In this document: positions 7,963 through 35,556 of the stretch, piece by piece
Layout of the letters: every line of letters starts with the position of its first letter
Numbering within the stretch: the first letter of the stretch is position 1
IMG/VR virus record: IMGVR_UViG_3300025671_000040
Source: an uncultured virus (IMG/VR IMGVR_UViG_3300025671_000040)
Lineage: Duplodnaviria; Heunggongvirae; Uroviricota; Caudoviricetes
Direction: 5' to 3' (one strand)
Length of the DNA stretch: 59,926 nt
Notes under the pieces: generated by a model
The model's input: only the letters and a program-made list of their open reading frames with translations
What the model was told of the DNA's origin: nothing
The model's database searches: none
Made by a program: the position numbers and the translations under genes

Positions 7963-8433
7963 CTAATCTGCCATTTGCTTCAAAAAGCTACCGTCCAACA
8001 GCATCAAACCAATCGTGGAATAGCCAACAATGTCCAGATAGGTGTCCTCCACCGCCTCATTCTCTGGCAGACGGCCAGAATCTAGCAGATTTTCCAAACG
8101 TGCAACCTTGTCATGGAGACGCACAATCAGACCACGGTGCCCGAACCTGAGAATGTTTTCAGAACCATAATCTCGCTGCTTATTACAGAGCGTTTGCCAC
8201 ACAAAATCCTTGTCTAGCGAAATATCGGCATGCTTGGTCATTGCCGCTAGCTGAAACCAAACCTCAGGATCAACCAACTCCTTATTGCCGACAAAATAAG
8301 TCTCAATCAGCGAATCAATATACTCCCGAATGTCTTCAACCGTAGTTACCTGAGACGACTCGGCCACCCACACGCTGTCAATATGTGTCAACGCATGATC
8401 TTCCCACGTCAACAAATCGTCAATTACGGTCAT
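7963..8433 (-). CDS. Nucleotide modification associated domain 1 (DUF1599-like, MazG/dUTPase-like all-helical fold)
   Basis: KQRDYG..GLIVRLHDKVARLENL..EAVEDTYLDIVGYS. Confidence 0.75.
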   Translation of the reverse strand: MTVIDDLLTWEDHALTHIDSVWVAESSQVTTVEDIREYIDSLIETYFVGNKELVDPEVWFQLAAMTKHADISLDKDFVWQTLCNKQRDYGSENILRFGHRGLIVRLHDKVARLENLLDSGRLPENEAVEDTYLDIVGYSTIGLMLLDGSFLKQMAD

Positions 8434-12834: not shown

Positions 12835-14124
12835 TCAGCTCGGTTCGGCGTCGAAGGTGACCTTGACGAACGCTTCCGGACGCTTGACAGCGAGGGCCAG
12901 ACGCTCTTCAGCAAGCACCACGATGGCGTTGCGGACGAAGAAGTCTGAGTGCTGCTCCGAAATACGGATCGTAGCCGCCTCACGGTCGTAAAGCTGAGCG
13001 CCAGTGCCGAAAGCGCCGACAAGAGCGGTGCCTGAAGCAATAGCAGGAGTGTCGATGACGGGGATACGCCAAACACGTGACTCAGCGCCACCGGCAACTG
13101 ACATCGCAAGCAGGTAGGTGCCCTGCGAGTTCTTGGTCAGCTCGATGTCTTCCCAATCTGACGGGTGGACGATGATGCCGGTCGGCTCGTAGTAGGCAAG
13201 GTATGCCAGAGTAGCCGCACGACGGAGAGCATCGGCCTTGGTGTCAGCGACAGGTGAAGTTTCACCAGCAGACCATGCGTAGGTCTGAACGTCGGTGGTG
13301 TTGAGGATACCAGTAAGGTCCTCGCCAGTACCGGCACCGTTCAGGATCTGCTCGTCCTCGTGAAGACGGAGACCGTAAAGAAGCTCGTTGTCGATGATTG
13401 AACGCAGCTGCGGCTCATCGGCAAGAACGTTACGGTGGGCAGCTTCCCAGTGAGCGATGGTACGGACCGGAGCCTGCTCACCAACGAAGGTCATCGTTGA
13501 CTGAGGCTTCGCACCAAAGTTACCGCTGGAGTACTCCGGAACAACTGAAGCGTTGTTCGTGAAGCCAGTCTGGCGGAAGTACTCAACCACGGCGGCGTTA
13601 GTAGTACGTGCCGGGAACAGGTCACGGACACGGCTACGACGCTGAGCAATCGGGACAATGCCGTCACGCTCAACCGCACCGAAGGAAGCAGGATCACCCG
13701 TGGGCAGCCCTGAGTAAAGGTCCTTCTGGGAAAGTGACTTGGCCTGGAAAGGCGAAACCATGTTTACGCCAGCCTTGCCGCCCTGAAGTGACTTAAACTC
13801 GTCAGAAGCAAGGAAAGCCTCACCAACTGACTTGGCGTGGGTAGCGACTTCGCGCTCAACACCAGCAGCTACCTCAGCGGCAACTGACTTGTACTCGGCC
13901 TCTGAGGACCAAGCCGAAACGTCACGAAGTGAAGTAATGCCCTCAATGAGGCCCTTCATCTCGTTAATCTCAGCCATGTTTGACTGGAAAGCAGCCTTCT
14001 TTTCCGCATCAGCGATAACTGTGGTGCCTTCCACCTGCATCGAATCAACGATCTCCTGCTGCTCAGCCATCTTAGCTGACAGAGCAGTCTTGACCTCGTT
14101 GAGCCGACTCTCATCAAAACTCAT
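12835..14124 (-). CDS. Major capsid protein, HK97 family, with N-terminal delta (scaffold) domain
   Basis: VRTIAHW..LADEPQLRSIID..EDEQILNGAGTGEDLTGILN; FVRNAIVVLAEERLALAVKRPEAFVK; SD AAGGAG. Confidence 0.95.
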   Translation of the reverse strand: MSFDESRLNEVKTALSAKMAEQQEIVDSMQVEGTTVIADAEKKAAFQSNMAEINEMKGLIEGITSLRDVSAWSSEAEYKSVAAEVAAGVEREVATHAKSVGEAFLASDEFKSLQGGKAGVNMVSPFQAKSLSQKDLYSGLPTGDPASFGAVERDGIVPIAQRRSRVRDLFPARTTNAAVVEYFRQTGFTNNASVVPEYSSGNFGAKPQSTMTFVGEQAPVRTIAHWEAAHRNVLADEPQLRSIIDNELLYGLRLHEDEQILNGAGTGEDLTGILNTTDVQTYAWSAGETSPVADTKADALRRAATLAYLAYYEPTGIIVHPSDWEDIELTKNSQGTYLLAMSVAGGAESRVWRIPVIDTPAIASGTALVGAFGTGAQLYDREAATIRISEQHSDFFVRNAIVVLAEERLALAVKRPEAFVKVTFDAEPS

Positions 14125-14310: not shown

Positions 14311-15828
14311 TTACGATTTAGTTCTACGTGGATGCTTCTTAGGGAGAAGGTCATTATCGGTTGTATACTTAGGATTCGACGGTTTACCGCTAGACACGAG
14401 TTTCAAGAATGCGTTGACACGACCCATAGCCCACTGCTGACGACCCATCTTTGGGCGGTGAGTAGCCGAGAAAGCACCGGCACCTCTACGCCAAACAGCC
14501 TTAAGCATACCTAACGTCACCTTGCGTTCAGGCTTGTTACGCTTCTCCATCTTCTCATTATGCTCTTTGACCTTGTTTTTCAAGGAAGTCTCAACCGCAG
14601 CCGAAAGCTTAATCCCTCCACGGGTACTAGCCGCCGTTCCCGGCTTGTTTCGTCTAGACCCCCGGATACGTTCCGAAGGCTTCGCTGGCGTCTTAGGATC
14701 GTTTGGCCCATAACGTCTAGCTGCTTTTTGACGAGTCTTCCAATTCTCAGGAATCAACTCGGTGCGTCCTAAAGCCCTGGCACGCTTCATGATATGCTTT
14801 TTGGTAGCCTCACGATTCTTGCCCAAACCATAAGCCTGGATAGCGTTACGCAAATCCCCGACATCCCGAATCGGGAACGAACCGTCAGGTAACGCCCAAC
14901 CACGCTTCGCATACTCCATCCGGCGAGCACGCGTGTAGTAACGTTTTTCTTCAATTGAGTTAAACGACTTTTCGGTACCTTCGACACGGGCAACAATATT
15001 CTTGGCCCATGTATATCCGGTATCGCCACCCCACAAAGCATGAGCAATTCTACCATTAGAAGGGAAACCTTTTTCACCCGGTCTAAACCCGTCAGCGTTT
15101 GCATCAGACTGATGTCTATCGAAAAACGCCTTCATCCTCTTTACAGTCTTGTACGGAAGATTCTTGCCATTCGCAATGTCCCTAGCACGAGCGATACCTA
15201 CAGCAGTACCCCCACGTTTAAACTCTTTACGCCACGCCAATGCTCGCTTCGCTTCTTCTACCATACCCTTCGTGGGGGTAAACGAATCAGAAGCCGTAAC
15301 AGATTTAGCCGAAACCAAGCCACCACCCGGCAACGTCTCAATGCCTCGTGGCCCACGCTCACGAAGTTTTTCCCACGCACGTAAATCTGTAGCAACACGA
15401 CGAGTTGGTCTTTGCAACCTCAAAACCGGTGAACCGCCGATACTCAAATGGCCGTGAGCCGCATTGTAATCTTCAGGAGTCATGCACGGCGCCCAAACCC
15501 CTTGCCGGGTCTGATGCGCACCGGCACACCCCATCTTGCTTGCGGCCTGTTCTGCAGCTTCACGAGTCGGGAACTTGTTCTTCCCTTTACCCTTCGCTTT
15601 CAACTCTAAAAAGTCGTAGAAGTTTTTCTTCTTCTGTTGCCGCTTCTTCCACTCACGAAAAGCAGGGTTACCGACCCGGATCAGCTTCTTCAGATCCTTA
15701 GGTGACTCACACGGACCCCAAGCATCGTCGCCCACTTTGTGTGCTCCCGAACAACCCAAAATCTTCGACAGCTCTTTTGCCATCTCTTCTGTAGGAACTG
15801 TCTGACCTTCCAAAGGATCTTTAGCCAT
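14311..15828 (-). CDS. Modular head-associated protein: two DUF3721-like Cys/His modules, a GGTAVG..ALWGG domain, a DUF6582-like and a DUF5824-like domain
   Basis: GCSGAH..WGPC and GCAGAH..WAPC; ALPDGSFPI..DLRNAIQAYG; LKAVWRRGAGAF..HRP..QQWAMGRVNAF..DNDL; start MAKDPL with SD. Confidence 0.7.
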   Translation of the reverse strand: MAKDPLEGQTVPTEEMAKELSKILGCSGAHKVGDDAWGPCESPKDLKKLIRVGNPAFREWKKRQQKKKNFYDFLELKAKGKGKNKFPTREAAEQAASKMGCAGAHQTRQGVWAPCMTPEDYNAAHGHLSIGGSPVLRLQRPTRRVATDLRAWEKLRERGPRGIETLPGGGLVSAKSVTASDSFTPTKGMVEEAKRALAWRKEFKRGGTAVGIARARDIANGKNLPYKTVKRMKAFFDRHQSDANADGFRPGEKGFPSNGRIAHALWGGDTGYTWAKNIVARVEGTEKSFNSIEEKRYYTRARRMEYAKRGWALPDGSFPIRDVGDLRNAIQAYGLGKNREATKKHIMKRARALGRTELIPENWKTRQKAARRYGPNDPKTPAKPSERIRGSRRNKPGTAASTRGGIKLSAAVETSLKNKVKEHNEKMEKRNKPERKVTLGMLKAVWRRGAGAFSATHRPKMGRQQWAMGRVNAFLKLVSSGKPSNPKYTTDNDLLPKKHPRRTKS

Positions 15829-15832
15829 GTTA

Positions 15833-16408
15833 CTATCCTTGCTCTTCGCTAGGAACAACCCCGCCACTTAATTTGATAAAATCTTGAACATACTTAGGGT
15901 CTTTCTCTTTCTCGACCTTGTTAAGTATCGCATAACTATATTCTAGTATCTCTCGCTGCGTTGCATCGTCAATATCCGCTTCTGCACCGGGCATGTTGAT
16001 ATTAATACCCCACCCGAAAAATACAGCCTCCATAAAGGCATCAACATCGGCAGGAATAAGCAAGCCAGTGTTAGATGAAAAGAAAAAGATGTAATCTGCC
16101 AACTCGCCGTCAGACATGGCCTCAATGCGCTGCTTTGTTAACATCGCCTTAGCGTTGAACTCATCAATAGCTGTGTACGCCTCAGAGTATTCTGACCTGT
16201 CAATCTCGGACAGCTCAGGAAAGAAGAACCTGAGGCGCTGCTCGGTGAACATGGGAGTATCAATCTCACGAAGCTTCTCTATCTCAGCAAACACACGATC
16301 AACCTTGGCTTGACTGTGCATAGTTGAATGCGCCTCAGCAGACCGAGGATCCTGCACCCGAATAATGACGAAAGCATCATCTGTCGTCTTGTAGTACGTC
16401 TCGTTCAT
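15833..16408 (-). CDS. Hypothetical protein
   Basis: 191-aa ORF overlapping the upstream stop. Confidence 0.7.
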   Translation of the reverse strand: MNETYYKTTDDAFVIIRVQDPRSAEAHSTMHSQAKVDRVFAEIEKLREIDTPMFTEQRLRFFFPELSEIDRSEYSEAYTAIDEFNAKAMLTKQRIEAMSDGELADYIFFFSSNTGLLIPADVDAFMEAVFFGWGININMPGAEADIDDATQREILEYSYAILNKVEKEKDPKYVQDFIKLSGGVVPSEEQG

Positions 16409-16842: not shown

Positions 16843-19416
16843 TCACTTATCCAAATCAACTAAGAAGTCGCCAGGGTCACCATCAAAGATGGCAACATCT
16901 GGGACTTTCGCTCCAGCATACACTTCCTCGTACAGATTCCACAACGTGCGCCTATACCATTCTTCAGTTTGCTCTGTTTTAGGAATCCGCTCCATGGCCT
17001 CACGAAGACCTTCCATTACTTTAGCTTTTCTACGAGCATAATCCGTAGGATAATTCCACAGGCGGCGCTGCGCTTCCCACACAATAGACTGTACCTCACG
17101 AGGATTCAATCCATATTTCTCAGCTATCCGAATAGCTGCTTCCCTGGCTGCCCAATAGTTTCCATTGAACCCGCCCGACCCCGGCTTTGGTTTAAACGAA
17201 GTCTTCATTATCTCATCGTTGGAACCAATAAGCATCAACAGAGATGCGTTAAAATGGTGCGTGTCTGCAGTCAAACTCTTGAACCTAGTATCGTTAGGAT
17301 CAACAATGTTGTTATAGAAAGATCTAACTTTTGACTGCGTGCTCAAGTTATCAGTGATAAACCGCTGCACGAATTCCCCTGTACCCAAATCAGGATTCTC
17401 TTTATCTGCCTTAAGAATACGAGCAACTTTAGTCCAAGGATCATTTTCAGCATTAGCAGCATGAGAAGTAGTTCCCTTCGCTTTTTTCAAAACAAAAGAA
17501 AATGAGCCATCAGCGTTCGGAGACATTCCAACTTCTCGAATAACATCCCCATCCAAACCAAACGATTCTGAAGCTTTTAGAACTTTACCCAAAACAATAT
17601 CTGGCTGATCAGAAATTCTACCCGCCATATTTCCGCCCATAGACTCGACCCACTCGGCAGCTGTCGTGGTATTAAACACAGACAGTTCTTCTGTTAAGCG
17701 ATCAACACGGGCCTGTGCCGTTTTAACTGAAGCTAAATGCTTTTTCGCTCTACTCTTCTTCTGTTTTAACTCGCTTAATCTTTTTTGAGCAGCCATCAAC
17801 GAGTTTGCTTTTGTGGCAGCAGCGGACGCAAACATACGCTCCGCCACATCAGCCATAGGGGGATCTTCTTTAAAAATCCTAACAGCATTAATTGCCGAAG
17901 GTACATTGCGCTCCCAGGAAGTACCAGCAGACAAAACCGCCATTGCTGCTGCAGCGGTCTCTACCCGCACGCCATGCTTATCAGCCGTATTGTTAGCCAA
18001 ACGATTAGCCGCATCATACCAAACCTGCGTAAGTCTAGCATCATCAGTCAAATTGCCATCAGCATCAACCATGCTTCCACGCCGCATAGTTTCTTCAAGA
18101 TTAGCCTCCATGTGACCAATCACCCAATCAAGCTTCTCCTCATCAGAAGCATCAGGACCAATTCCAGCATTCTCCATCAAATCATTTAGATGCGGATAGC
18201 CTTTAAAAATATCCGCAACAATAGACTTGCGTTCAGCATCAGTAACATCAGCAAGACGTTGAGTCTCTGCAGCAACTCTGGGAGTAGCACCCGGATTTCC
18301 TACGACAACACCCGCACGTTCTCTAGCCGCATCACCACGAAGCAAACCAACAATCTCATCCGCATCAGCCTGCCTCAAAGTAATAAGCCGATCCGTAACA
18401 GAATCCTGCTTACCACGCATCGTATCATAATCCGAAGTAGGTAAACGACCAGTATCAGCCATAAACCGTTTAACCCCAACAGAGTTACCCTGCTCCGACA
18501 ACTCCGCAACCAACGAAGTAACCGACGCCGCAACCTCATCAGCACGGCCATCATCCAAACGGCGACGCAACTCAACAACAGCAGGATGATTCGACTCAGA
18601 AGCCTTTTCAAGGAAATCAGCAAGCGCCTCTTGATCTCTCAAATTCACGCCATCAACCAAAACACCCGAATGCGAAACCGGATGCAAACTCATCCCATCA
18701 TCATCCGAAGAACCCATAATGTCCAAAGGACTCCGAGACGGATTAGACAAAACAAAATCCATCAAAGCCAAACGAACCACATCATCAGTATCCGCCTGCG
18801 ACACACTCATCTCCGGACGCAAATCACGAGTATCCCCAACCACAACCGAATCAGGCATCTCCATCAAAACCGCAAACGAACCATTCTCCCCAACGTTACT
18901 AGCCACACGCATACGGCCCTGAGCAAAACCAAACTCCTCAGCAACACGAGAAGCCAAAATCTCTACACGGCCAGCATCTTCCAAAGCATCCTCACCATCA
19001 TGATGCTTCAAACCATACACCACGCCAGTAGACGTATCCCGAAACTTCAACATACCGTCCGGAGTTGTACGATCCGCAATAACCTCAAACCGGCCACCAC
19101 CATCAGCAATATCCCGAACAATCGTTTCACCTAAAAACTCGTCAGGCACCGCAGACAACGAACCGCCATCAACAACATGATAAACCGCCGACTCAACATC
19201 ACCAATCGACGTATTTCCGTTCTCTCTACTAACAACCGTGGGCGCACCAGTAACCACACGCTTCGGATCAAGATCAGAACGATAATCTGGATTATACCGC
19301 TGCGCCACACCATTAGGGGTACGTGGACGAGTAGGATGAACTTCGCAGAACATCTTCTCAGCAATCTGTTCAATTATTTTGTTAGTAATAAAACTCTGTG
19401 TAGAAAAATCAGACAT
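16843..19416 (-). CDS. Multidomain protein: degenerate HipA/PI3-4-kinase-like domain plus C-terminal DUF7178-like (HhH-glycosylase-like) domain
   Basis: YGLK..EILASRVAEEFG..LMDFVLSNPSRSPLDIM..LHPVSHS; WYDAA..AMAVLS...SWERN..KVRSFYNNI..TADTH..PREVQSIVW. Confidence 0.65.
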   Translation of the reverse strand: MSDFSTQSFITNKIIEQIAEKMFCEVHPTRPRTPNGVAQRYNPDYRSDLDPKRVVTGAPTVVSRENGNTSIGDVESAVYHVVDGGSLSAVPDEFLGETIVRDIADGGGRFEVIADRTTPDGMLKFRDTSTGVVYGLKHHDGEDALEDAGRVEILASRVAEEFGFAQGRMRVASNVGENGSFAVLMEMPDSVVVGDTRDLRPEMSVSQADTDDVVRLALMDFVLSNPSRSPLDIMGSSDDDGMSLHPVSHSGVLVDGVNLRDQEALADFLEKASESNHPAVVELRRRLDDGRADEVAASVTSLVAELSEQGNSVGVKRFMADTGRLPTSDYDTMRGKQDSVTDRLITLRQADADEIVGLLRGDAARERAGVVVGNPGATPRVAAETQRLADVTDAERKSIVADIFKGYPHLNDLMENAGIGPDASDEEKLDWVIGHMEANLEETMRRGSMVDADGNLTDDARLTQVWYDAANRLANNTADKHGVRVETAAAAMAVLSAGTSWERNVPSAINAVRIFKEDPPMADVAERMFASAAATKANSLMAAQKRLSELKQKKSRAKKHLASVKTAQARVDRLTEELSVFNTTTAAEWVESMGGNMAGRISDQPDIVLGKVLKASESFGLDGDVIREVGMSPNADGSFSFVLKKAKGTTSHAANAENDPWTKVARILKADKENPDLGTGEFVQRFITDNLSTQSKVRSFYNNIVDPNDTRFKSLTADTHHFNASLLMLIGSNDEIMKTSFKPKPGSGGFNGNYWAAREAAIRIAEKYGLNPREVQSIVWEAQRRLWNYPTDYARRKAKVMEGLREAMERIPKTEQTEEWYRRTLWNLYEEVYAGAKVPDVAIFDGDPGDFLVDLDK

Positions 19417-19417: not shown

Positions 19418-22400
19418 CTAACACCCTATCTCGTTAATGTCTGCCGAAGAAAGATCAATAACACCTTCATCAATAGTAAAATCACCAAGCTTCTGATTGC
19501 TTCTATCTGCATAACTACCCAAAGCATTAATCTCATCAACAGATGTTATTCTACTAACAGAACCTGCCGGAATGAAGTCATTGACTTCATCCATCAAAGC
19601 GAGGGCCTCAGCATTGTTAAATGATAGATAAGAGTCTTTGAACAACTTCACAACGTGGCCCTCATGCTTGCTGCCAGTCTTAGCCCGCAAAGCTTGTACG
19701 AATTCAGGATACTGCGCCCAGTCTTTAAATTTATCATCACCGAGCTGCAAATTTTGATTCAGTAGCGAGGCTACACGATCTCGCTTACTGTCGTCTCCGT
19801 CGAAAACCAGCAACGCAGTAATCTGGTAACGAGACAACGACTGGCCTTTATCTATAGCGTCTTTAGCCCCGTCATAATTCTTAACCAAATCCCTAAACGC
19901 TAAATTCAAATTTTTAATCTTATACTCTGTGTTAGAACGGACACCTTTCTTCGGCCAAACATATTTACCGTCCCAACCCACATCAAGATTATGATTTTCT
20001 TTAAAGCCCGCAGCAAACGCCATGCCCAAATATCTAGCGTTGAGCAAATCAGAAATTCCACGCTTTCTATTGTCCAGCTTTAGAATACTGCCATCAGGTA
20101 AGGGCACTGAAAAAGGAAACTCTGGATCATCTCTACTGTTTACAACCACATAGTCGTGCTGTACGCTATAACTTCCATCAGATGAGAAAGCTAAAGTACG
20201 TACCACATTACCCGTGGGGCTGACCTTCTGACGAGTTAACTCATTTCCGTCCTCATCAAATACCGTCACATACAGATCAGAAACCAAACCCAATTCATCG
20301 AATGTGGAGATATAAACACTGTCTGCATTTGACACGTTATCAATCTCAACCATTACTGGTCTATCGTCATCTGTTCTAGCATCATACGCAGCTACGATCG
20401 TACGCTTGCTACGATCTTTAGCACCCTTTGGATCAGACGCATTTAAAAGCTTCAACGCCCACTCGCCTAGCTTTCCTTCAGACTGAAGCCGATATAAAGT
20501 GTCATAAGGTGTTTCGCCCGGAAGCGAAACATCATATTCCTCTGGTGTTAGCCCCGAAAGCCCCAACGTCAGAATTCCCTGCGTGCTTGCTTTCTTCCTT
20601 TCCCGGATAGCAACCTGCCAGACAGGAACATCGTTTGGTCCAGGCAGCAAATCAGGGTCATTCACAACATAATTAATTTTTCCAGCAACATCGCCTATTG
20701 TTTTGGCACGGGCATCTCTAAATTCTGTTTTGAAAGCAATCAAAGCCGCCAAATTTTGTTCTGCGCCGTCCACCCCATACAAGTTATCAATAGACATCTG
20801 CAAAGATGCCATAGCGACCACAAACTCACGATCGCTAATACTTCTGACAAGTCTCTCAATATCTCGATCGTTATCTAAGAACTGACTATACAATCTGTCC
20901 AGATCCTCGCCCGCTCTGGACATGTTTGAGCTAACACGCTGCAGTTCAAAACCACGCTTCATATGAGAGATCGTGTCTTTCAGAACTCTTTCAGTCACTG
21001 CTTTATCTTCTGCCGAATAAGTTAATCCAGCAGCATCAGCACGCCTAAACATATCATTAATCATGGCATCAGCAACTGATTCATACATGCTCACGTTGTG
21101 TATATCCTTAACAGAACGTCCCAACATTCTCTCAAGCTCTTTTTCCATAACAACGTTCTTAGTGAAAAGATCGTACGCATCGCCTTCCGAAGCATTTAAC
21201 TGAGCGTAAACACGATCAACCATACGTGCCGCATAATCTTCAACATTATCAAGATACTCGTTTTCTGAAGTAGACAAGATGAGGTAAATCAAAGCCTCTT
21301 CAGATCTTTCAGAACTTGGGCGATCCAACTGACCTAACTCTCGCCTTCTTCTATCTGCCGTTAAATTGTAAATGGTGTCATACGCCATGCTTAACATTCT
21401 ACGATCCGGGCCGTATCCTTCAGTCTCAGCAATCCGCCCTAACGCATAAGACAAATACGAGTACTCTTCCAAAGAAAGACTATCCGGATCCTCACCAACT
21501 TTCGCCACATACTTCGACACCTGATTTACCATGGCATCACGGAACTGCTCCTGCGTAAGCCCCAACCTGCGATCTTCCTCATCAGTCTCGGGCATCGGTA
21601 ACTGGTCAAGCAGATCAGCATAATCAACCATGCTTGCCACATCCCACAAACCGTCTTGATCGTTCAAATCTATCAAAGCTTCAATGCGTTCTTCTGCACG
21701 CTCACCTACAGACAGGGCCGTCACACCCTCTTCTGCGACTTCATCAACCGTAGTCGCTACACGTCGATTCTCTGCAATACCAACAAGACGACCAGCAAAC
21801 TCATCAATATCGCTATCAAGTCGAGCAGCAGACTCCAAACCCGGCGACCGAATGCCGTAAAAATCTAGATACGCCTGACGCTGCGCCTCAACCGTGGCGA
21901 TATCCTGCAACCGTGAAGCCAACGCCTCCCAAGACGGCTCATCCAACTCATCAGCCCCACTAAACTGAACACGACGCAAAGCAGCAGATAAATCATTACC
22001 GATGTTATCCAAAGCTGCACGCACATCATCAGTCAACGGAGGCATATTCACAGGAGTCAGCCTATCCAACTGATCAACAGGAGGAAGCCGCTCTGACAAC
22101 TTATCAAAGTCAGCAATAACCTCATCGAAAGCAGCCTGAGTCTCAAAGACACCTTGCCTGAAACTTCCCTCTTCGATATCATCTACAATGACACCAGCCA
22201 AGCGACCTGAGCCGGGTCTGTTGCGGGCAAACTTACCACGAGCATCCTGCAAATTACCCAAGCTTAACATCGTGGAAGACCTCAAACTACGGCCACAAGT
22301 AGTGCCACGCATATTCGTTAACTGACCGCCCCCAGTAAAACCAGGGGGACAACGATAACGACTGATCGACGGATCAAAGAACGCTAATGCCGAAGCAAAC

Positions 22401-24241
22401 CCGCCCAACGCCCGACGCAAAGGAACACCGCCAGGACGGACACGCTTAAAGTTCACCCCGCCCAAATACGCCTGATCCTTATAGGCATCTATCTTAAACG
22501 CAATATCCGCCTGATACTCTTTATAGAGTGTATCGGGTTGGACCGCCTTTGCGGTTATGAAAAAAGGGTTTACGGACTTGCCCTCCGGAACAAGCTCAAA
22601 GATCGGATCGTCCTTAGCACGACGTGGTGCAGAACGAGACAAAAACGTTTCATAAACCCACTGAGGAACCTGACGAACCGTGCCCCCCGGCCCCTGTACT
22701 TTAACTAGTTTGTTGTCGGCCTGTTCAACATTAAAGCGGCCCTGCTCATTAAGATTGCCGAACTCGACAACGAACTTACCGCCAGAATCGTCAGCAAACC
22801 CTCGCAGACCGGCAGTCGGATCCGGAAGATCAGCATCACGAGAAATGCGAGTAGGTAGAGTACGACTTAAAGACGCACGATCTGCAGGACTAAGCTCACC
22901 GCCCTCTCTACCGAAACGAACAACACCGACCTCAGGAATCGCAAAGTACACATCCCTAAAGCCCGCATTGATAGACTGAACAGCCTCAACGATTTCAGGA
23001 GAATCAAACGAAGCATCAGGATTCTTGATAATCAACGAGCCGTCCACAACATCGTCAAAGTCGCCGGTCTGATTAGCGAAGAAACTCAAACCTGCAACAG
23101 GCTCAAGAATAACACCATCTCGTTTAGAAACCCGAATGCTCCAACGATCATCATCAATAGCGTTCAGAACCGTGTTAACACCAGCGGCACGAGCAGTGAC
23201 ATTGACTTTCTTCGGAGTGGTCGGAATCTGGGCAGCACGAATAAAGACGCCAGGATTTCTTTGAGAGCGCAAATCGCCAATACTCGAAATAAGTTCAGCG
23301 TTTCTAGCTAACCTAGCCAGCGCCCGACCCGTACCACCGATGAGAGATCCCGGACCAACCCCCGGAATACCCAAAACCTGGGCACCACAAGTACTGAAAC
23401 GACGATCAGTGAACGTACCGCCATTCTCAAACCCAGGCGGACAACGGAACCGGTTACGGGCACCACGACCCGAACGGCCCAATAAGCGACGACCAGCGCC
23501 CGCCAAACGACGGCCACGACCGCTACCTCCACCCGGAGTTAGCGCACGATAAATCCCTGAACGCACAGGACTTCTGACAACACTAACATTGCCAGGAAGA
23601 GCACTGGAGCCGACAGCCTGAGCTACCTGACCAAAGCGACTGTTAGAACCAAACAAGCCTACACGCTTAACAGAAAACTCATCATGCTCAACAGCAATTG
23701 GTGTATCCAAATACTGCCTAAAAATAGCAGCCTTCATATCAACAACATTCTGACGACCCGCAATCGGCTGAACCAAAATGCCGCCATAAGCACGAGACTC
23801 GCTCACAGCATAACGCAAAGAAGAACCAGAATACTCTGGCTGACTCAAATCAACAGACTTTGCTTTTCGAGCAGCAGAACGAACACGACGAGTCAACTTG
23901 CCACGCCGCTTCCGGTTCCCCTTACCAGCGCCACGCTTACCCTTGCCCTCATTCGGCCACTTACCAGTCAACTCGTGGTGAAGCCAAGCACAAATACGCT
24001 GCGGCTTACCACCAAACTGCGGCTTGTCCATCAAAATAACGACACACCGACGAAAGCCACCCGGCTTCTTCATGATCGGACGCCAATACTTCAGCAGATC
24101 TTCAAGATTGCCACGACGAGGACCACGGCCACGAGTTAAAGCAGTTAACTGGTCGGCGTTAGGCCCAATTTCAGGACCAACCTTAGAAAAATAAGGTCCG
24201 ATTTCAGGAGTTTCAGTTTCCATCATCAGAAGCCTTTCCAT
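19418..24241 (-). CDS. 1607-aa head-module protein with N-terminal Cys/His domain, two RCPPG..GG..T..CG repeats and a C-terminal GNAT-like domain
   Basis: PGGFRRCV..CAWLHHELTGKWP; RFRCPPGFENGGTFTDRRFSTCG and RYRCPPGFTGGGQLTNMRGTTCG; NRKRGISDLL..GWDGKYVWPKKG. Confidence 0.7.
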   Translation of the reverse strand: MERLLMMETETPEIGPYFSKVGPEIGPNADQLTALTRGRGPRRGNLEDLLKYWRPIMKKPGGFRRCVVILMDKPQFGGKPQRICAWLHHELTGKWPNEGKGKRGAGKGNRKRRGKLTRRVRSAARKAKSVDLSQPEYSGSSLRYAVSESRAYGGILVQPIAGRQNVVDMKAAIFRQYLDTPIAVEHDEFSVKRVGLFGSNSRFGQVAQAVGSSALPGNVSVVRSPVRSGIYRALTPGGGSGRGRRLAGAGRRLLGRSGRGARNRFRCPPGFENGGTFTDRRFSTCGAQVLGIPGVGPGSLIGGTGRALARLARNAELISSIGDLRSQRNPGVFIRAAQIPTTPKKVNVTARAAGVNTVLNAIDDDRWSIRVSKRDGVILEPVAGLSFFANQTGDFDDVVDGSLIIKNPDASFDSPEIVEAVQSINAGFRDVYFAIPEVGVVRFGREGGELSPADRASLSRTLPTRISRDADLPDPTAGLRGFADDSGGKFVVEFGNLNEQGRFNVEQADNKLVKVQGPGGTVRQVPQWVYETFLSRSAPRRAKDDPIFELVPEGKSVNPFFITAKAVQPDTLYKEYQADIAFKIDAYKDQAYLGGVNFKRVRPGGVPLRRALGGFASALAFFDPSISRYRCPPGFTGGGQLTNMRGTTCGRSLRSSTMLSLGNLQDARGKFARNRPGSGRLAGVIVDDIEEGSFRQGVFETQAAFDEVIADFDKLSERLPPVDQLDRLTPVNMPPLTDDVRAALDNIGNDLSAALRRVQFSGADELDEPSWEALASRLQDIATVEAQRQAYLDFYGIRSPGLESAARLDSDIDEFAGRLVGIAENRRVATTVDEVAEEGVTALSVGERAEERIEALIDLNDQDGLWDVASMVDYADLLDQLPMPETDEEDRRLGLTQEQFRDAMVNQVSKYVAKVGEDPDSLSLEEYSYLSYALGRIAETEGYGPDRRMLSMAYDTIYNLTADRRRRELGQLDRPSSERSEEALIYLILSTSENEYLDNVEDYAARMVDRVYAQLNASEGDAYDLFTKNVVMEKELERMLGRSVKDIHNVSMYESVADAMINDMFRRADAAGLTYSAEDKAVTERVLKDTISHMKRGFELQRVSSNMSRAGEDLDRLYSQFLDNDRDIERLVRSISDREFVVAMASLQMSIDNLYGVDGAEQNLAALIAFKTEFRDARAKTIGDVAGKINYVVNDPDLLPGPNDVPVWQVAIRERKKASTQGILTLGLSGLTPEEYDVSLPGETPYDTLYRLQSEGKLGEWALKLLNASDPKGAKDRSKRTIVAAYDARTDDDRPVMVEIDNVSNADSVYISTFDELGLVSDLYVTVFDEDGNELTRQKVSPTGNVVRTLAFSSDGSYSVQHDYVVVNSRDDPEFPFSVPLPDGSILKLDNRKRGISDLLNARYLGMAFAAGFKENHNLDVGWDGKYVWPKKGVRSNTEYKIKNLNLAFRDLVKNYDGAKDAIDKGQSLSRYQITALLVFDGDDSKRDRVASLLNQNLQLGDDKFKDWAQYPEFVQALRAKTGSKHEGHVVKLFKDSYLSFNNAEALALMDEVNDFIPAGSVSRITSVDEINALGSYADRSNQKLGDFTIDEGVIDLSSADINEIGC

Positions 24242-24415: not shown

Positions 24416-26308
24416 TCAGGCCAAATCTTCACCATCGAGCATGTTCTGGAATTCGGCCAAAGCGTTGATAAGCTCAACGTCTTCTTCCTTCTCCGCAGGC
24501 GCATCAGCCTCCGCTTCAGGTGCCTCTGGCTCTTCCTCGTTCCAATCCGCAGGAATCATGTCTTCCTTGCCAAGCTCCTTAGCACGCTTCATGATGTGCT
24601 CCTTAGCCGCAGCCTTATCCTTGGCACGACCGTAAGCCTGGATAGCGTTATCCAGATCCGCAGCATCAGCAATTGGGAAAGAACCGTCAGGAAGAGCGTC
24701 GCCAGACTCAGCCATGGCCTCACGCTGTTCACGAGAGTACATGCGCTTGATCTCAAGCTCAGCCTCAAGAGCCTTCAGTTCATCTTCCTCGTCCATGTCG
24801 TAGTCGAAAGGATTCTCAACTTCGTACTCATCGAAGCCAAGGACCTTGCCCTCAGGAGAAACGAACACATCGTAGCTCTTCTCGTTGGTATCAACCTCAA
24901 CGACGTACACGTCCTGATTAGCAAACACATCGACCAGAACGCCCATCACGTCGCCCTTGATGTCGAGATCCTCAAGAGCCTTAACGGCAGCGTCTTCGGC
25001 GTCGGCCTGAGATACAATGTCCTGCATCTCACCAGACTTGGCATCCATCTCATCTTCATCAATACGCAGCCAGCCCATCTCCTCGCCCTCGCCGGACAGG
25101 AAGACCTGAATGCACGAACCATCGGCACGCTTCACATCGACAACGAAAATGTCGTCTGCTGTTGAGTAACCAGAACCAACAATCTCTGAACCTTGATGTA
25201 GTGACTTGACCTGGGACTCAATATCTCCTAAACCGGGGAGATCTTCGGTAGGCATACACCCTCCTTGACAAAACTCGCATGGTTGATTAACTGACTTACG
25301 GCTAAATCCGCACAGGAAGTCATCTGACTTCATGCCCTCTGCGGGCATTCCTGCAGGAGCATCTTCCTGTGCCTGCTGCTGAGCAGCCTGCCGAGCTTCA
25401 CGAGCAGCTTCAGCCTGTTCGGCTTCACGCTCTTTCTTGGCAGCCATTTCTTTCTTGCTCAGATCCATCCACTCATCGTGGGAAGCGCAAGGCATGAACA
25501 TCTTACCTGCACGGTGCATGCCTTCGCAACCAAGAGCTTCAGCACGTTCCATCGCTTCTTCAGCAGTTTCAAATACGTCTTCAACAGCGTTCTCGTCTTC
25601 TGCCTTCCGCATAGCGTTCAGCTCAAGGGGACTGCGACGACGATAGCGTCTACCATAGCCCTTGCTGGTGCCCTCTTCGTAAACATCGACAGCCTCAAAA
25701 GCTCCCTTAGCGTCTTCGTCAAGACCATCGTAGTCTTCATCGGAAACTAGCTCACCGTCTTCCATCATTTCCTTAAACCGAGAGTCGGTCAAGAAAATTG
25801 AAGGCTTGTCACTCTTAGGCGCACGCATCATTGACATGATGACTGCGGCCTTTTCGCTCACATCATCATCTTCGTCGTCTTCGGCGTCTTCGTCGGCTTC
25901 TTCTTCGTCGGCTTCCTCGCCATCTTCGTCGGCTTCCTCGCCATCTTCGTCGGCTTCCTCGGCGTCCTCGTCATCCTCGTCATCCTCGTCCGCCTCATCA
26001 GCTTCGTCTTCGTCAGCCTCGTCCTCGTCATCTTCTGACTTGAAACGGAACATCCAACCCATAGGAGTATCACCCTTCTCGTCCATGACAAGAACCTTCT
26101 CCATGAGCAGCTGATCTTCTTCAGAAAGCTCAGCAAACTCCTCTTCAGAAATTAGCTCACCAGCATCCTGCATCTCCTTGAAACGGATATCGGTCATGAA
26201 AACAGAAGGCGCACCCTTCTCGTCCTCATGCATGCCCTTCTCTTCACCGTCCAGCATCGCCTGAATTTCTTCAAACTTCTGAAGGTCTTCGTTAAGATTT
26301 TCACTCAT
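24416..26308 (-). CDS. Acidic scaffold-like head protein with internal repeat, DUF3721-like, Cys4, PepSY-like and DUF6582-like modules
   Basis: D/E tract; duplicated PSxFxTDxRFKEM; GCEGMH..FMPC; CGF..CEFCQGGC; VSQADAEDAA..VYVVEV..YDVFVSPEGKVL; ALPDGSFPI; directly after the protease; SD AGGAG. Confidence 0.75.
   Translation of the reverse strand: MSENLNEDLQKFEEIQAMLDGEEKGMHEDEKGAPSVFMTDIRFKEMQDAGELISEEEFAELSEEDQLLMEKVLVMDEKGDTPMGWMFRFKSEDDEDEADEDEADEADEDDEDDEDAEEADEDGEEADEDGEEADEEEADEDAEDDEDDDVSEKAAVIMSMMRAPKSDKPSIFLTDSRFKEMMEDGELVSDEDYDGLDEDAKGAFEAVDVYEEGTSKGYGRRYRRRSPLELNAMRKAEDENAVEDVFETAEEAMERAEALGCEGMHRAGKMFMPCASHDEWMDLSKKEMAAKKEREAEQAEAAREARQAAQQQAQEDAPAGMPAEGMKSDDFLCGFSRKSVNQPCEFCQGGCMPTEDLPGLGDIESQVKSLHQGSEIVGSGYSTADDIFVVDVKRADGSCIQVFLSGEGEEMGWLRIDEDEMDAKSGEMQDIVSQADAEDAAVKALEDLDIKGDVMGVLVDVFANQDVYVVEVDTNEKSYDVFVSPEGKVLGFDEYEVENPFDYDMDEEDELKALEAELEIKRMYSREQREAMAESGDALPDGSFPIADAADLDNAIQAYGRAKDKAAAKEHIMKRAKELGKEDMIPADWNEEEPEAPEAEADAPAEKEEDVELINALAEFQNMLDGEDLA
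25902..25961. repeat. 21-bp in-frame tandem repeat (~2.9 copies) encoding GEEADED
   Basis: tcttcgtcggcttcctcgcca repeated. Confidence 0.8.
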
Positions 26309-26338: not shown

Positions 26339-27916
26339 TTATTGAGCACCCTCATCGGTGTCAATGGGTTCTGTAATGCTAATGCTAGGAACAAATTCCA
26401 AAGTAGCCAAAGAATCCGCTACCTTAACCATAAGTTCATCATGATCCATCTTCGTAGAGAAGTGAACATCCACGCCCTCATCTGTCTTGAAGGAGAAAAC
26501 AGGCACAGCCGAAAGCGCAGACGAAACATCAAGAGCCTCATCATCAGAGCACTTAACGTGTACCACGAAACCAGAAACAGCCTTTTCGCCCTGCTCCATT
26601 GGACGAGACATCGGAGCCTCCGTCAGATAATCCTCAACGCCAGCAATAAGCTCAAGCGTGGCTTCACGTAGTGTGCCTGCACCACGAAGCTTCAACATCT
26701 CGTTGTAAGCCATCAAAAGAAGCGCCATGGGGTCTTTGAGATACTCAGGTGTCTTTGACTCCCCGTACCCATGACCCTTTTCTTCGGTACCGCAAGAACA
26801 GCCGCCAGTAGCATCCTTTGCCTCTTCGACCTCCACACCGGCCAAGTAGTTGTTGTGAACATTGATGTTAGCATTACCATCAAAACGTTTCAGTGCCTCA
26901 AGGTACTCCTCGTGCGTGTCACAAGGAAGATAGCCACCACCATGTGAGTGGGTGCCAGAACAACCAAATGTTTTCGACCATGCTAAAGCAATATCAGGAG
27001 TCGCCCAAGTACCGTGCTCGTCCTCTGCGTCACGGATACCTTCAGGCTCTTCAGCGTCCTTCTCGTCAGGGTCCTTAACCATCATCGAAGGAGGAGCCGA
27101 ATCACCAACCGGCGTATACGACATCGTAGGCTTCACTCTCGTAGGCTTCCCAACCATGATGTTGCCTTCGTCCATTGAGAACGTGGCCATCCATGTCATG
27201 TCTTCGCCTGTCTCAAAGATTACCGAGTTTCCGTCAACACTGATAATTTTTACCGGCTTACGAAGAGCTTGAGAAAGCGCATTGCCAATCATTGATGACA
27301 TTGCGTCGGCTCTATTTGACGGCTTACCCATTCCGTTGTCATCCATATGCATTTTTGTCACTGTGCCTTCTTCATCGTCTTTTACAGAAATAGTACCGGT
27401 TAGCTGATTAGCGCCGTGTAGTACGGGAGAAATCTCGTATAGTTCAACTTCTTTAAGCATGTTTGCTTTTTGCATAGCATCGTAATCGGCGGTTAGTGTT
27501 TTGTAACCAATCGACCACTCTTGATCATTTCCATAAAATGCAACATTTGCGAACGCCTCACGACCACGCTCAGTATTGAGGTTAAACTGAACTTTTGCGT
27601 AAAGTCCGCCAATCTTAGCATTCTTCATCTTCTCAGGCAGTCTTGGATCATTTCTAGAAACTTCGTAAATCTCCAGAACCTTACCGATGGGCTGATTCCA
27701 ATCGTGGCCCCAAACAACTCGGGGCTTACGGCGCTTTAAAGATTCGTTAAAAGCCCCAGAAATAACAACATCGCCAACTGAATCGCGATTGCCAATACCT
27801 GAAACAAATGCTTCGACAATACCTTCGGCTTTATCAATGCCAATCTGGCCTGAAATGGCCTTAAAAGTGAAGTCTTCTTCCTTTTCAGATGCATTTTCCA
27901 TAACGACAGAAGTCAT
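26339..27916 (-). CDS. Prohead maturation protease (HK97 family) with long C-terminal extension
   Basis: DSVGDVVISGAF, WGHDWNQPIG, WSIGY, LKEVELYEISPVLHGAN. Confidence 0.92.
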   Translation of the reverse strand: MTSVVMENASEKEEDFTFKAISGQIGIDKAEGIVEAFVSGIGNRDSVGDVVISGAFNESLKRRKPRVVWGHDWNQPIGKVLEIYEVSRNDPRLPEKMKNAKIGGLYAKVQFNLNTERGREAFANVAFYGNDQEWSIGYKTLTADYDAMQKANMLKEVELYEISPVLHGANQLTGTISVKDDEEGTVTKMHMDDNGMGKPSNRADAMSSMIGNALSQALRKPVKIISVDGNSVIFETGEDMTWMATFSMDEGNIMVGKPTRVKPTMSYTPVGDSAPPSMMVKDPDEKDAEEPEGIRDAEDEHGTWATPDIALAWSKTFGCSGTHSHGGGYLPCDTHEEYLEALKRFDGNANINVHNNYLAGVEVEEAKDATGGCSCGTEEKGHGYGESKTPEYLKDPMALLLMAYNEMLKLRGAGTLREATLELIAGVEDYLTEAPMSRPMEQGEKAVSGFVVHVKCSDDEALDVSSALSAVPVFSFKTDEGVDVHFSTKMDHDELMVKVADSLATLEFVPSISITEPIDTDEGAQ

Positions 27917-28018
27917 GTCTCTCCTTAAGGTCTAAGAGCGCCCTGAGTATATGTTATCGGGGCGAGGGTTGTTACTTTAGCGTATTTATATAAACTGAAA
28001 AACGGGTAATTATATAAA

Positions 28019-29521
28019 CTATAGTGCAGATTCGCTAGGAACTCTTGATGCAGGAGCTTCAATATTATCAGTACCCTGCACAGTGCCAGCAGGAACAAAC
28101 CCGCCAACCTCAGGACTAAACTCAGCAACATCCTGACTAAACGCAGCAGACCTCTGCGCATCCAATGATTCACCAACACCTGCACCGGGAGCACCGCCGC
28201 CAGGAGCAATACTGGTCGGAACTGCACCGCCCTCAGCCGCCGCTGCTTCCTCCTGCTCAGCAGCAATCTCCTCCTGCGTTTTCTCAGTATTCGCAATCGG
28301 CGTCTGATTCGGGTTAGCCAACAACGAATCAGCAATATCGCCATCAACACGCTTACGGCTCACCGCTTGACGATACTCATTAACACTAATTAGACCTTGC
28401 TGGAACTCTGACAAATAGTGCATCGCCCGCTCCTGACTAGCTAAAACCAGCGTGGGAACATTACCGGTATCGAAATCAATGTAGTAAGTAGGATCAATCT
28501 TGTCGAACGATCGTGCAATCAAGTCCAAGTGCGGAGACATGGTTTCCATCCAGAAAACCTTCCCCTCTTCAGAAGCGTTAGCGAAAGTACGGTTAGAAGA
28601 GTTGCCGATAATCGACTCAGGTACACCAAATGCTGCCAAAATCTCTTCTTTGGTGATTGTTCGCATCTGGATATACGCAGCATCACGAGGACTGGCTGCA
28701 GTATCAACGAAATCTGCACCATCATCGGCGGAAATTACACCTACAGCGCCTGCTCTACCGATATTGCCACGGAAACGGGAACGTAACTCCTCTTTATCCT
28801 CGTCAGCGATCTCGCTGCGTAGAACAAGTAGACCGCCGGGACGACCGTCGTTAATCAAGAAGTTCCTGTTGTAGATTTTAGCCAAACTTTCGACTTCGAT
28901 AGCAACCCCAGAAGCTTCCATTGGGGTCATCGACAAGTAAGGATCCAAAGGATGCGGACGGCGAATCCAGATGACATTCTCTGGACGCAACGTACGCTTC
29001 TCATGTGCACTAATCTTGACTTCAAAACCCTTCACAAACTTCTGAACATCAGGAATAGGTGACGTATTCTGAGGCGGCAAAAGGTGAAGCGCAATGGGTA
29101 CACCACCTCTACCTCGTACAACCTCAACAAAAACACCACGACTACTCATGAGAAGCTGAGCAGACAAACGATACCTAAACGCAAACGCATTCTCGCCCTG
29201 GTTGGCAGTGTTATTGAAGATTTTCAACAAATCAGCGTCTTGGACAATCTCACCAAAGGGATTGTTGTCTTTGCGTAAAATCATGGGAAGGCGTGCTTGG
29301 TTTGAAGCGATCACATCAATGCTTCTAAACACCCAAGTGACCTTAGCGACGCCCTCTTTATAAGCCTTAACAATGTCCCACCCATCATGATAACCACGAT
29401 TATCCGCCAAAGAAGGGCTGTACGAAACTGGGGCGCCAACAGAAATAGGAGCAGCTTTCTGCTCCTCTGGCCCTACAGCAATGTTGCGAAGTGATTTGTT
29501 AGATGTGGAATTCCATGCCAT
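28019..29521 (-). CDS. Portal protein, HK97 family
   Basis: WVFRSIDVIASNQARLP, NDGRPGGLL, EEILAAFGVPESIIG..TFANA, ISVNEYRQ. Confidence 0.93.
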   Translation of the reverse strand: MAWNSTSNKSLRNIAVGPEEQKAAPISVGAPVSYSPSLADNRGYHDGWDIVKAYKEGVAKVTWVFRSIDVIASNQARLPMILRKDNNPFGEIVQDADLLKIFNNTANQGENAFAFRYRLSAQLLMSSRGVFVEVVRGRGGVPIALHLLPPQNTSPIPDVQKFVKGFEVKISAHEKRTLRPENVIWIRRPHPLDPYLSMTPMEASGVAIEVESLAKIYNRNFLINDGRPGGLLVLRSEIADEDKEELRSRFRGNIGRAGAVGVISADDGADFVDTAASPRDAAYIQMRTITKEEILAAFGVPESIIGNSSNRTFANASEEGKVFWMETMSPHLDLIARSFDKIDPTYYIDFDTGNVPTLVLASQERAMHYLSEFQQGLISVNEYRQAVSRKRVDGDIADSLLANPNQTPIANTEKTQEEIAAEQEEAAAAEGGAVPTSIAPGGGAPGAGVGESLDAQRSAAFSQDVAEFSPEVGGFVPAGTVQGTDNIEAPASRVPSESAL

Positions 29522-31037: not shown

Positions 31038-31979
31038 CTAAGCGTCTCTTACCGCATTAAAGACATTTACTTTAAGCCGATGACTGAAGTTGTCTAACTC
31101 TAACGAGTGCTGTGCTGCTTCAATCGGTGGAATATCTCTGTGGAAATCTATGTATTCCGTAATAGCGTTATACGCCGCCCACTTCGTTTCACCGAACCGG
31201 CCAAGATTATGAGGCTGACGGTAAATAGTATTGATCTTCTCGTGCACATCTTCAGCGTTGGAACGCTTCTTAGCAGAAGAAGCTCCTTGAGTGGACCAGA
31301 ACTTTTCCATCACCTTGAACATTTTATCAGCAGACATGTGAGAAGATGTAAACTCGCTGATGATAAGGTCAAGCTTCTCCGACCAAATCTGACGCATCGT
31401 GAGAGCTTCTGTCGCATCCATAGGATCAATCGTCTCATTCGGTGTGTGTCGCTTACGCAAACTAAAATCTGCATCAGCAGAAAAACGATAAACAGAATTT
31501 GTTTCAGCCCGAACATCTAGGTTGTAATAGCAAATAGGGATACTGCCATCGTGGGAAGTAATGACAACGATATAGTTATCTACAGAATCCTCACCCATGG
31601 TAGACAGGATCTTTGTGCTACTATGCTTAACGGCCACGAAAAACTTACGACCTTCCTCAAGCACCCCGCAACTATGCAAAGAGGCTGCGCCGTTTGCTTT
31701 TGCCACGATATCTCTAGCTCTATCTAAAATGCTAGAGTTGGGTACAACCGAGTAACGTTCTTTCACGACCTCCCACATGATGCGGTGAGTCTGATCCAAA
31801 CTAACTCGGTTAATGATAAAGCGGTTAGGGAACGTGGCGATCTTGCCCATAACGTCGTCATGCATCAAGACCGGGCTTAGTGTAACAGTATAGTCGCCTT
31901 TGGACTTGAGTAAAATCTCGTTGTTCGATTGCTCAGACGAAATCCTAGTCCCAAGGTCAAGCCATGACTTATCGCTCAT
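31038..31979 (-). CDS. DUF932/DUF945-family phage/plasmid protein
   Basis: VVKERYSVVPN, CGVLEEGRKFFV, YIVVITSHDGS, TKWAAYNAITEYIDF; real start MSDKSW at 31979. Confidence 0.75.
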   Translation of the reverse strand: MSDKSWLDLGTRISSEQSNNEILLKSKGDYTVTLSPVLMHDDVMGKIATFPNRFIINRVSLDQTHRIMWEVVKERYSVVPNSSILDRARDIVAKANGAASLHSCGVLEEGRKFFVAVKHSSTKILSTMGEDSVDNYIVVITSHDGSIPICYYNLDVRAETNSVYRFSADADFSLRKRHTPNETIDPMDATEALTMRQIWSEKLDLIISEFTSSHMSADKMFKVMEKFWSTQGASSAKKRSNAEDVHEKINTIYRQPHNLGRFGETKWAAYNAITEYIDFHRDIPPIEAAQHSLELDNFSHRLKVNVFNAVRDA

Positions 31980-32112
31980 ATCCGGACCCCGGCTCAGACG
32001 AAATCCTAGTCCCAAGGTCAAGCCATGACTTATCGCTCATATCCGGACCCCGGCTCAGACGAAATCCTAGTCCCAAGGTCAAGCCATGACTTATCGCTCA
32101 TCCCCGGACCCC
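31931..32112. repeat. 61-bp tandem repeat, ~3 copies, spanning the mazG stop / DUF932 start junction
   Basis: Unit gctcagacgaaatcctagtcccaaggtcaagccatgacttatcgctcatatccggaccccg starting at 31931, 31992 and 32053. Confidence 0.95.
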
Positions 32113-32441
32113 TGAATCACGTTCCGATCGTATCGGTCAAAAAGCTTTTCGATATTTTCTTTAGCAATGTCGTTGAGATCAATACCAAGCTCCCAGGCGA
32201 GCACGGCAGCATACCAAAGCACATCACCGATTTCTTTACTGATAGCAGAGCGGAATACCGAATCAGTATAGTCCCCGTCACTGTCTCTAATGTGCTTCTT
32301 TACCTTGTCAGCAACTTCGCCTGCTTCGCTAGCGAGACCAAGAGTCAGGTACTCAACCGCTGATTCCTTCGGATAAATAGCGGTCGTCTTAGCACCAACC
32401 TGATACGCATTAAATTCCATTCCCATTTTATCTCCTGTCAC
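32091..32441 (-). CDS. mazG: MazG-like nucleoside triphosphate pyrophosphohydrolase
   Basis: LGLASEAGEVADKVKK..KEIGDVLWY..NIEKL..R..RNVIQGSGD. Confidence 0.88.
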   Translation of the reverse strand: MTGDKMGMEFNAYQVGAKTTAIYPKESAVEYLTLGLASEAGEVADKVKKHIRDSDGDYTDSVFRSAISKEIGDVLWYAAVLAWELGIDLNDIAKENIEKLFDRYDRNVIQGSGDER

Positions 32442-32965: not shown

Positions 32966-32969
32966 TTAC

Positions 32970-34139: not shown

Positions 34140-34144
34140 GAGAC

Positions 34145-35547: not shown

Positions 35548-35556
35548 AGTGTTCTC

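Follow-up and report, generated by a model that had tools for sequence, protein, structure and literature searches.

Polyvalent and MuF head-cargo proteins of phages carry unrelated activity domains in one chain, are encoded with virion genes and are predicted to be delivered together with the DNA; kinase domains have been described among the polyvalent proteins (Iyer et al. 2017; PMC5512222). The protein analysed here resembles them. It is the 857-residue product of the open reading frame (ORF) at 16843..19416 on the minus strand of IMG/VR record IMGVR_UViG_3300025671_000040, whose 59,926 nucleotides (the window) represent a portion of the genome of a large uncultured tailed phage. The chain unites two unrelated domains, a kinase-like module and a module of the Pfam family DUF7178, and its gene lies within the head module. 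Compared with the proteins treated in PMC5512222, it has two modules only, and its kinase is of the PI4K/HipA type and apparently inactive, not of the truncated Ser/Thr/Tyr type.

The kinase-like module resembles the PI3/4-kinase/HipA/CotH/Fam20 group (PI4KIIalpha, 4pla; HipA, 5k98; CotH, 5jda), from which the clade studied here differs in the replacement of the catalytic Asp, His and Asn and of the metal-binding Asp. The DUF7178 core is structurally similar to the 8-oxoguanine glycosylase/apurinic-apyrimidinic (AP) lyases Tm1821 (3n0u), Pa-AGOG (1xqo) and hOGG1 (2noh), and to the queuosine hydrolase QNG1/DUF2419 (7u07). It has no detectable sequence or profile similarity to these HhH-GPD (HhH, helix-hairpin-helix) enzymes, and its core is split by an insert of about 160 residues composed of a coiled coil and a beta hairpin. 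Its loop from Lys to Asp exceeds that of E. coli Nth by a few residues and, whereas the repair glycosylases stand alone, DUF7178 occurs in giant proteins of phage virion modules. No paper naming 'DUF7178' or 'PF23802' was found in the literature searched, the word 'glycosylase' is absent from the text of PMC5512222, and nothing relevant was found on phage HipA/MuF proteins or virion pseudokinases, as judged by titles and the beginnings of abstracts.

The reading we prefer, at a probability of roughly 0.55, is that this head-module protein couples a PI4K/HipA-type kinase fold, stripped of its catalytic residues, to an Ogg2-like DUF7178 enzyme and is carried in the capsid. It would be expressed together with the head genes of the phage. 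The first module (residues 60-362) would not transfer phosphate; its role would probably be to bind a nucleotide, a host protein or a component of the capsid. The second (residues 455-805), modelled as an HhH-GPD fold that resembles Ogg2/OGG1 and is split by a coiled-coil hairpin, with all family-invariant polar residues kept, would most likely be a DNA base-excision enzyme combining glycosylase and AP-lyase chemistry, or a related nucleic-acid base-processing enzyme. From the position of the gene and the analogy with polyvalent and head-cargo proteins, the product would probably enter the capsid and reach the host along with the DNA. If a base-excision enzyme is indeed borne by the capsid, phage genomes would arrive in the host accompanied by a DNA-glycosylase activity, a class of early effector outside the survey of PMC5512222. 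The pseudokinase partner and the allele pattern are what is specific to this window, and the fusion would be a rare case, among bacterial viruses, of a kinase fold that is conserved yet stripped of its catalytic residues.

A kinase fold with degenerate catalytic and metal-binding motifs

Residues 60-362 (18331..19239; like all parts of the protein, on the minus strand) correspond to a PI4K/HipA/CotH-type atypical kinase domain. They are preceded by a leader (residues 1-59; 19240..19416) consisting of one helix (4-22) and a low-confidence stretch, which is conserved within the clade and not present in the active outgroup kinases, and they are followed by a linker (residues 363-454; 18055..18330) that varies in length and sequence among relatives. 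Residues 1-404 were modelled with AlphaFold2 from a nine-row alignment (predicted local distance difference test, pLDDT, 58.6; predicted template modelling score, pTM, 0.62), and structure comparison of the model revealed a bilobal kinase fold in residues 60-362. The best Foldseek rows were all PI3K, VPS34 or actin-fragmin kinase. In a VIA-align comparison against 48,161 chains, kinase-fold proteins occupied all 50 rows listed, with scores of 8.8 for CotH, 8.7 for Fam20, 8.2 for both MavQ and actin-fragmin kinase, 8.0 for CtkA and 7.4 for HipA. As a lead only, the ESM Atlas's own model matched HipA_2 clusters (template modelling score, TM, 0.57-0.58) and MuF 'head morphogenesis' fusion proteins (TM 0.57-0.61). 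Residues 1-404 matched no Pfam family at E<=10, the curated kinase profiles PF00454, PF07804 and PF20613 being likewise unmatched. The whole protein had no match in PADLOC or NCBIfam, and sequence and profile searches of the PDB gave chance-level rows only.

Among 1.84 billion representatives searched exhaustively with HMMER was the homologue P0069, a protein of 763 residues whose C-terminal domain aligns with residues 60-249 of the target (31% identity over 199 residues, BLASTP E 1e-23) and which reads NTDRHRKN and PIDHG at both positions that are degenerate in the target. Word-index homologue searches returned only six clade members and one further active homologue, P0156. A two-sequence alignment of P0069 and P0156 led to two further ORFs in the metagenome loci L192 and L193; used as single queries, P0069 and P0156 had no match in viral contigs, and P0156 had none in metagenome contigs. 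Around the catalytic loop, P0069 and P0156 match the Pfam families PI3_PI4_kinase and Fam20C weakly and under the cut-offs, with only 19.6 and 21 bits, respectively, against a kinase-profile cut-off of 27.1. The outgroup kinase domain is C-terminal and ends at the point where the linker of the target starts.

A first-pass annotation, made by a model from the letters alone, had described the N-terminal half as following the HipA/PI3-4-kinase-like order of motifs, with a kinase fold expected at residues ~110-255 and both key Asp residues lost. All the motifs it quoted are present in the translation of 16843..19416, in the places it gave: YGLK (residues 134-137), EILASRVAEEFG (152-163), LMDFVLSN (218-225), SRSPLD (227-232) and PVSH (246-249) in the kinase-like module, and WY..A (466-470), KVRSFYNNI (696-704), TADTH (716-720) and P.EVQSIVW (772-780) in the DUF7178 module. 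They are more than chance strings, because P0069 and the DUF7178 family align to these blocks. The kinase-like order is borne out by the alignment of the N-terminal block with the independent homologue P0069 and by the kinase folds returned in the model comparisons, and the modelled fold spans the expected range.

The conserved strand Lys of YGLK, K137 (19006..19008), lies in strand 133-139 of the model and E152 in helix 142-161. Both residues are kept in 9/9 aligned sequences and, on the model, would represent the ATP-anchoring strand Lys and helix Glu. The catalytic loop has degenerated to N-P-S-R-S-P-L-D (residues 225-232; 18721..18744) and the metal-binding motif to H-P-V-S-H-S-G (residues 245-251; 18664..18684), whereas all four outgroups (P0069, P0156 and the L192 and L193 ORFs) read N-T/R-D-R-H-x-x-N-Y/F-F and x-P-I-D-H/N/P-G/S. 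The alignment therefore agrees with the loss of the Asp residues of DRHxxN and PIDH described earlier: 4/4 outgroups keep them and the clade does not. Eleven IMG/VR loci carry full-length relatives, and the loop is S/A-R-S-P-L-D in each of them, with the former catalytic Asp replaced by Ser in ten and by Ala in one; the former metal-binding D-H is S-H in 8/11 loci and P-D in 3/11 (V-P-D-S-G in the sister alleles). At the level of sequence, such a residue pattern is the signature of a pseudokinase. Since neither the catalytic Asp, His and Asn nor the metal-binding Asp is retained, residues 60-362 most likely do not transfer phosphate. Of the 156 proteins compared, only 10 were found to have the kinase-like domain (members of the clade, a fragment and the two outgroups), and it was found in no DUF7178 giant, so the fusion is clade-specific.

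The DUF7178 module and its likeness to HhH-GPD glycosylases

The second module matches Pfam DUF7178 (PF23802) at residues 460-573, with 68.4 bits against a cut-off of 27 (E 1e-18), which confirms the DUF7178 relationship proposed in the first-pass annotation. A second DUF7178 stretch lies downstream of an insert, so that the match is in two pieces. The family is widespread in the giant proteins of phage virion modules: 1651 HMMER relatives of the target were retrieved at E<=0.001 from the 1.84 billion representatives, 146 of the 150 matches listed align only within residues 389-852, and many DUF7178 relatives are 2,000-5,600 residues long. DUF7178 was found in 19/20 scanned relatives, alongside RNase_T, GNAT, ART-PolyVal, LPD22, LPD23 or LPD38, partners typical of polyvalent proteins (PMC5512222). 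A tblastn search with the target in 50,697 phage records gave no match, and a BFVD search returned only uncharacterised phage proteins. Two of these, G8EYE9 (198 residues) and A0A2I6UH43 (202 residues), are stand-alone DUF7178-like proteins without the insert (TM by target 0.72-0.77) from Synechococcus phage S-CBP42 and a Salinibacter phage; at about 200 residues, such insert-free forms would be convenient for biochemistry.

Residues 405-857 were modelled confidently from a 37-row alignment (pLDDT 86.4, pTM 0.86) and are all-helical, with a coiled-coil hairpin and a beta hairpin inserted. The first half of the domain (residues 455-520; 17857..18054) contains W466, Y467, S496, W501 and N504. 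It is followed by the insert, which comprises a long antiparallel coiled-coil hairpin (residues 521-582; 17671..17856; helices 117-148 and 154-178 in model numbering) and a remainder (residues 583-678; 17383..17670) with a beta hairpin (629-643) and a low-confidence loop. Model secondary structure (DSSP) and conservation then delimit a helix-hairpin-helix, a Pro/Asp-rich loop and an Asp motif (residues 679-726; 17239..17382), succeeded by the C-terminal helices of the core (residues 727-805; 17002..17238), with Q776, S777 and W780, and by a C-terminal tail (residues 806-857; 16846..17001). The relatives P0007 and L130-L132 (1020-residue alleles) hold about 100 extra residues within the insert, with a weak GNAT match (Acetyltransf_10, E 0.011), and these residues may, on sequence, be a third module nested in DUF7178.

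The model features the two-lobed helical fold of the HhH-GPD superfamily at residues 455-805, in the C-terminal half for which a relative of helical glycosylases had been proposed. In a structure comparison, 17 of the 50 rows span the core (OGG1 14, Pa-AGOG 2, QNG1 1), the remaining 33 being explained by the coiled-coil hairpin alone, as were 48 of the 50 rows in another comparison. According to DSSP, helix 679-687, a short hairpin and helix 695-705 form the helix-hairpin-helix, with K696 at the start of the second helix; after it come the loop V-D-P-N-D-T-R-F-K-S-L-T-A and D718-T-H, which caps helix 719-726. A Lys at that place of the helix-hairpin-helix and an Asp about 20 residues further on constitute the catalytic pair of bifunctional HhH-GPD glycosylases. 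Conservation was determined over 153 domain segments cut from the HMMER representatives (clusters at 50% identity). Thirteen residues are invariant in 153/153, namely W466, Y467, S496, W501, N504, K696, T716, D718, T719, H720, Q776, S777 and W780, and the target keeps all of them. The modelled fold and these residues point to glycosylase/lyase activity with DNA as the putative substrate, and the fusion of an apparently inactive kinase with a glycosylase-like domain holds, on the models, at the level of folds.

Allele divergence, gene order and rival explanations

The head module is encoded on the minus strand and opens with the portal gene (28019-29521) and a separate gene for an S78 prohead protease (26339-27916), the two together spanning 26339..29521. 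These are followed by a 630-residue ORF, a 1607-residue ORF (19418..24241), the target, three small ORFs, a 518-residue ORF and, at the end of the module, the HK97-type major capsid protein (12835..14124). The target gene starts one base past the stop of the 1607-residue ORF, which always adjoins it, and its own stop overlaps the start of an 83-residue ORF. The order portal, protease, 630-residue ORF, 1607-residue ORF, target, 71-residue ORF, 191-residue ORF, 518-residue ORF, capsid protein, 244-residue ORF and ribonucleotide reductase (RNR) is kept in 11/11 loci, as far as the contigs reach. In the wider DUF7178 family, a virion-structural gene (portal, tail, DNA-ejection, head-closure or other virion-structural gene) lies within 10 kb in 9 of the 13 loci with full 10-kb flanks. 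Position and analogy with head-cargo proteins argue for packaging and delivery of the product.

Within the conserved order, the alleles of the target differ strongly. Four of the 11 full-length relatives are identical to it and seven share 47-52% identity. In the sister phages L129-L133, the portal is 93-99% identical to that of the window, the protease 96-97%, the 518-residue ORF 95-97%, the capsid protein 96-99% and the RNR 98-99%, whereas the target is only 47-49% identical. The 1607-residue ORF is diverged as well (50-91%), so the variable region spans two adjacent genes. L127 and L128 are more distant throughout (portal 82-83%, protease 80%). The divergence is uneven along the chain: against P0005, residues 1-250 are 78-94% identical and residues 251-857 18-64% per 50-residue bin, the break falling directly after the degenerate metal-binding motif. 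Judging from these identities, the C-terminal 600 residues would have been either swapped between alleles or evolving much faster than the rest of the genome. A pattern of flanks at 95-99% and a target at 47-52% points to a locus under conflict-type pressure.

Several observations weigh against a capsid-carried fusion of a stripped kinase and an Ogg2-like enzyme. Packaging, cleavage, DNA binding and catalysis are all deduced from sequence, model and gene position. The N-terminal model is of moderate confidence (pLDDT 58.6) and its catalytic-loop stretch, residues 228-260, falls below 50; its Foldseek matches to kinases are weak (E 2e-3 and up), and the kinase folds with odd active sites SelO and SidJ are among its structural matches, which makes an unconventional activity conceivable. 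For the C-terminal model, Foldseek has no PDB match (best E 0.2), so that the Foldseek check suggested by the first-pass annotation succeeded, weakly, for the kinase half and failed for the other; the top rows, trichodiene synthase, Rad50 and efflux channels, were dismissed as helical noise. The target deviates at seven positions conserved in 86-93% of the DUF7178 family, among the deviations from the family being the hairpin Gly (93%), which is Ser in the target (G692 to S). Four of the 13 DUF7178 loci have no recognisable structural neighbour within 10 kb. At E<=10 the target has no match to the HhH-GPD or Ogg-HhH Pfam families (PF00730/PF22175), and both are absent among the 25 most-matched families (of 54) for 37 scanned members. 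With hhalign, the 153-sequence DUF7178 profile gave a probability of 0.2% (P 0.27) against 33 Nth/MutY/AlkA sequences and P 0.32 against seven bacterial Ogg-HhH sequences. The former profile was built on Nth columns from a diverse set obtained by genome search; a contig scan with E. coli Nth had given only relatives at least 87% identical, too alike for a profile.

The best local alignments are non-significant but agree in their order with the structural reading. The motif slice 684-735 aligns to E. coli Nth 122-145 with D718-T-H on V-D-T-H (P 0.064, not significant), in an arrangement that moves K696 by three residues relative to the catalytic Lys position. In the Ogg-HhH alignment (82 columns; P 0.32, likewise not significant), K696 falls on the Lys of G-x-G-P-K, D718/H720 on L-D-x-H and W780 on a conserved Trp. 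Because the profile tests are not significant, we class DUF7178 as HhH-GPD-like on the grounds of its fold and motif geometry; its membership is not demonstrated by sequence. The helical-glycosylase likeness first proposed is thus upheld by fold and geometry but not by any significant sequence or profile similarity to HhH-GPD families.

These weaknesses leave room for other explanations. The most serious, though a doubtful one, casts DUF7178 as a domain without catalysis that binds DNA or has a structural part, perhaps by holding or protecting the genome end inside the capsid or while the DNA is ejected; the resemblance to glycosylases would in that case come down to a shared helical DNA-binding scaffold, a view we consider equally doubtful. 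Thirteen polar or aromatic residues invariant in 153/153 sequences of at most 50% mutual identity, with K...D-T-H in the geometry of the HhH-GPD catalytic pair, would sooner be expected of an active site than of a surface that binds the backbone. It is improbable that the protein goes unpackaged, acting in the cell late in infection (in DNA processing before packaging, or as an aid to head assembly) and never entering the next host. Such a role would suit a phage whose numerous genes for DNA modification and repair act in the cell, and packaging is read from gene position only, but the gene has the prohead protease on one side and the capsid protein on the other, is closely coupled to the adjacent genes in an order kept in 11/11 loci, and has DUF7178 counterparts in virion-structural modules at 9/13 other loci. 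Fusions of kinase-like domains to MuF head proteins also exist, as a lead only.

The degenerate kinase raises a further alternative, in which K137/E152 together with D232 or H249 would carry out a non-canonical nucleotide-dependent reaction (AMPylation, glutamylation), as in SelO or SidJ, making two enzymes in one chain. We hold this to be quite improbable. The drift of the substituted positions, with the former catalytic Asp as Ser in 10/11 and Ala in 1/11 and the former D-H as S-H in 8/11 and P-D in 3/11, looks like relaxed constraint where a new chemistry would need these sites, and argues against a new catalytic role for them. The invariance of the loop is uninformative, because residues 1-250 as a whole are 78-94% conserved, and the loop is modelled at a pLDDT below 50. 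The same low likelihood applies to an extension of the preferred reading that makes the protein a capsid-delivered weapon, in which the dead kinase gates an Ogg2-like glycosylase/lyase that nicks unmodified host DNA, the phage DNA being immune. Here the dead kinase would still bind a nucleotide or a host protein and act as a built-in switch; base removal and nicking would strike, within minutes of the onset of infection, the DNA of the host or one of its defence nucleic acids; hypermodified phage DNA, suggested by the modification genes of the window, would be spared; and the divergence of the C-terminal 600 residues would mark an arms race with host inhibitors or targets.

Neighbouring genes and DNA metabolism

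The 1607-residue ORF contains two R-C-P-P-G-F...G-G...T...C-G motifs. The same motif opens the active-kinase homologues of L192 and L193 (coordinates listed for this observation: L192 1-2196 and 2411-3715, L193 2-1345 and 1346-4123) and is present too in the ORF upstream of the L193 kinase gene. Being common to the 1607-residue ORF and the L192/L193 homologues, it suggests a common anchoring element of these head-module giants. A different short Cys motif, DUF3721 (G-C-x-G-A-H...W-x-P-C), occurs in three head-module proteins on the minus strand: at the C-terminus of the protease (26339-27916), in the 630-residue ORF (24416-26308) and, in two copies, in the 518-residue ORF (14311-15867), which also matches DUF5824. 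The three proteins could have this motif as a common tag for capsid targeting or metal binding.

At the left end of the window (1-5343, minus strand), a giant ORF of at least 1781 residues runs off the edge and carries a DEDDh/RNase_T exonuclease at residues 943-1125. It was likened to polyvalent giants such as P0012 (RNase_T and DUF7178); the presence of DUF7178 in it was rejected, the domain scan giving RNase_T only.

Outside the head module, the window has genes for a terminase and for many functions of DNA metabolism. A cluster of likely DNA-modification or anti-restriction genes (~7963-8433 and 31038-45453) includes DUF1599 (nucleotide-modification-associated), DUF932, two ParB_N proteins, a PAPS-reductase-family protein, a methyltransferase, two PhyH dioxygenases and a GT2 glycosyltransferase, while ThyX, thymidine kinase and RNR are encoded elsewhere. 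This gene content is consistent with the phage DNA being hypermodified, as it may be. A full-length RecA lies at 45791-46855 on the plus strand (Pfam E 4e-136), and a Rad52-family protein, a Cas4-like PD-(D/E)XK nuclease, a single-stranded DNA-binding protein (SSB), a primase-helicase and an SNF2 helicase are found elsewhere in the window.

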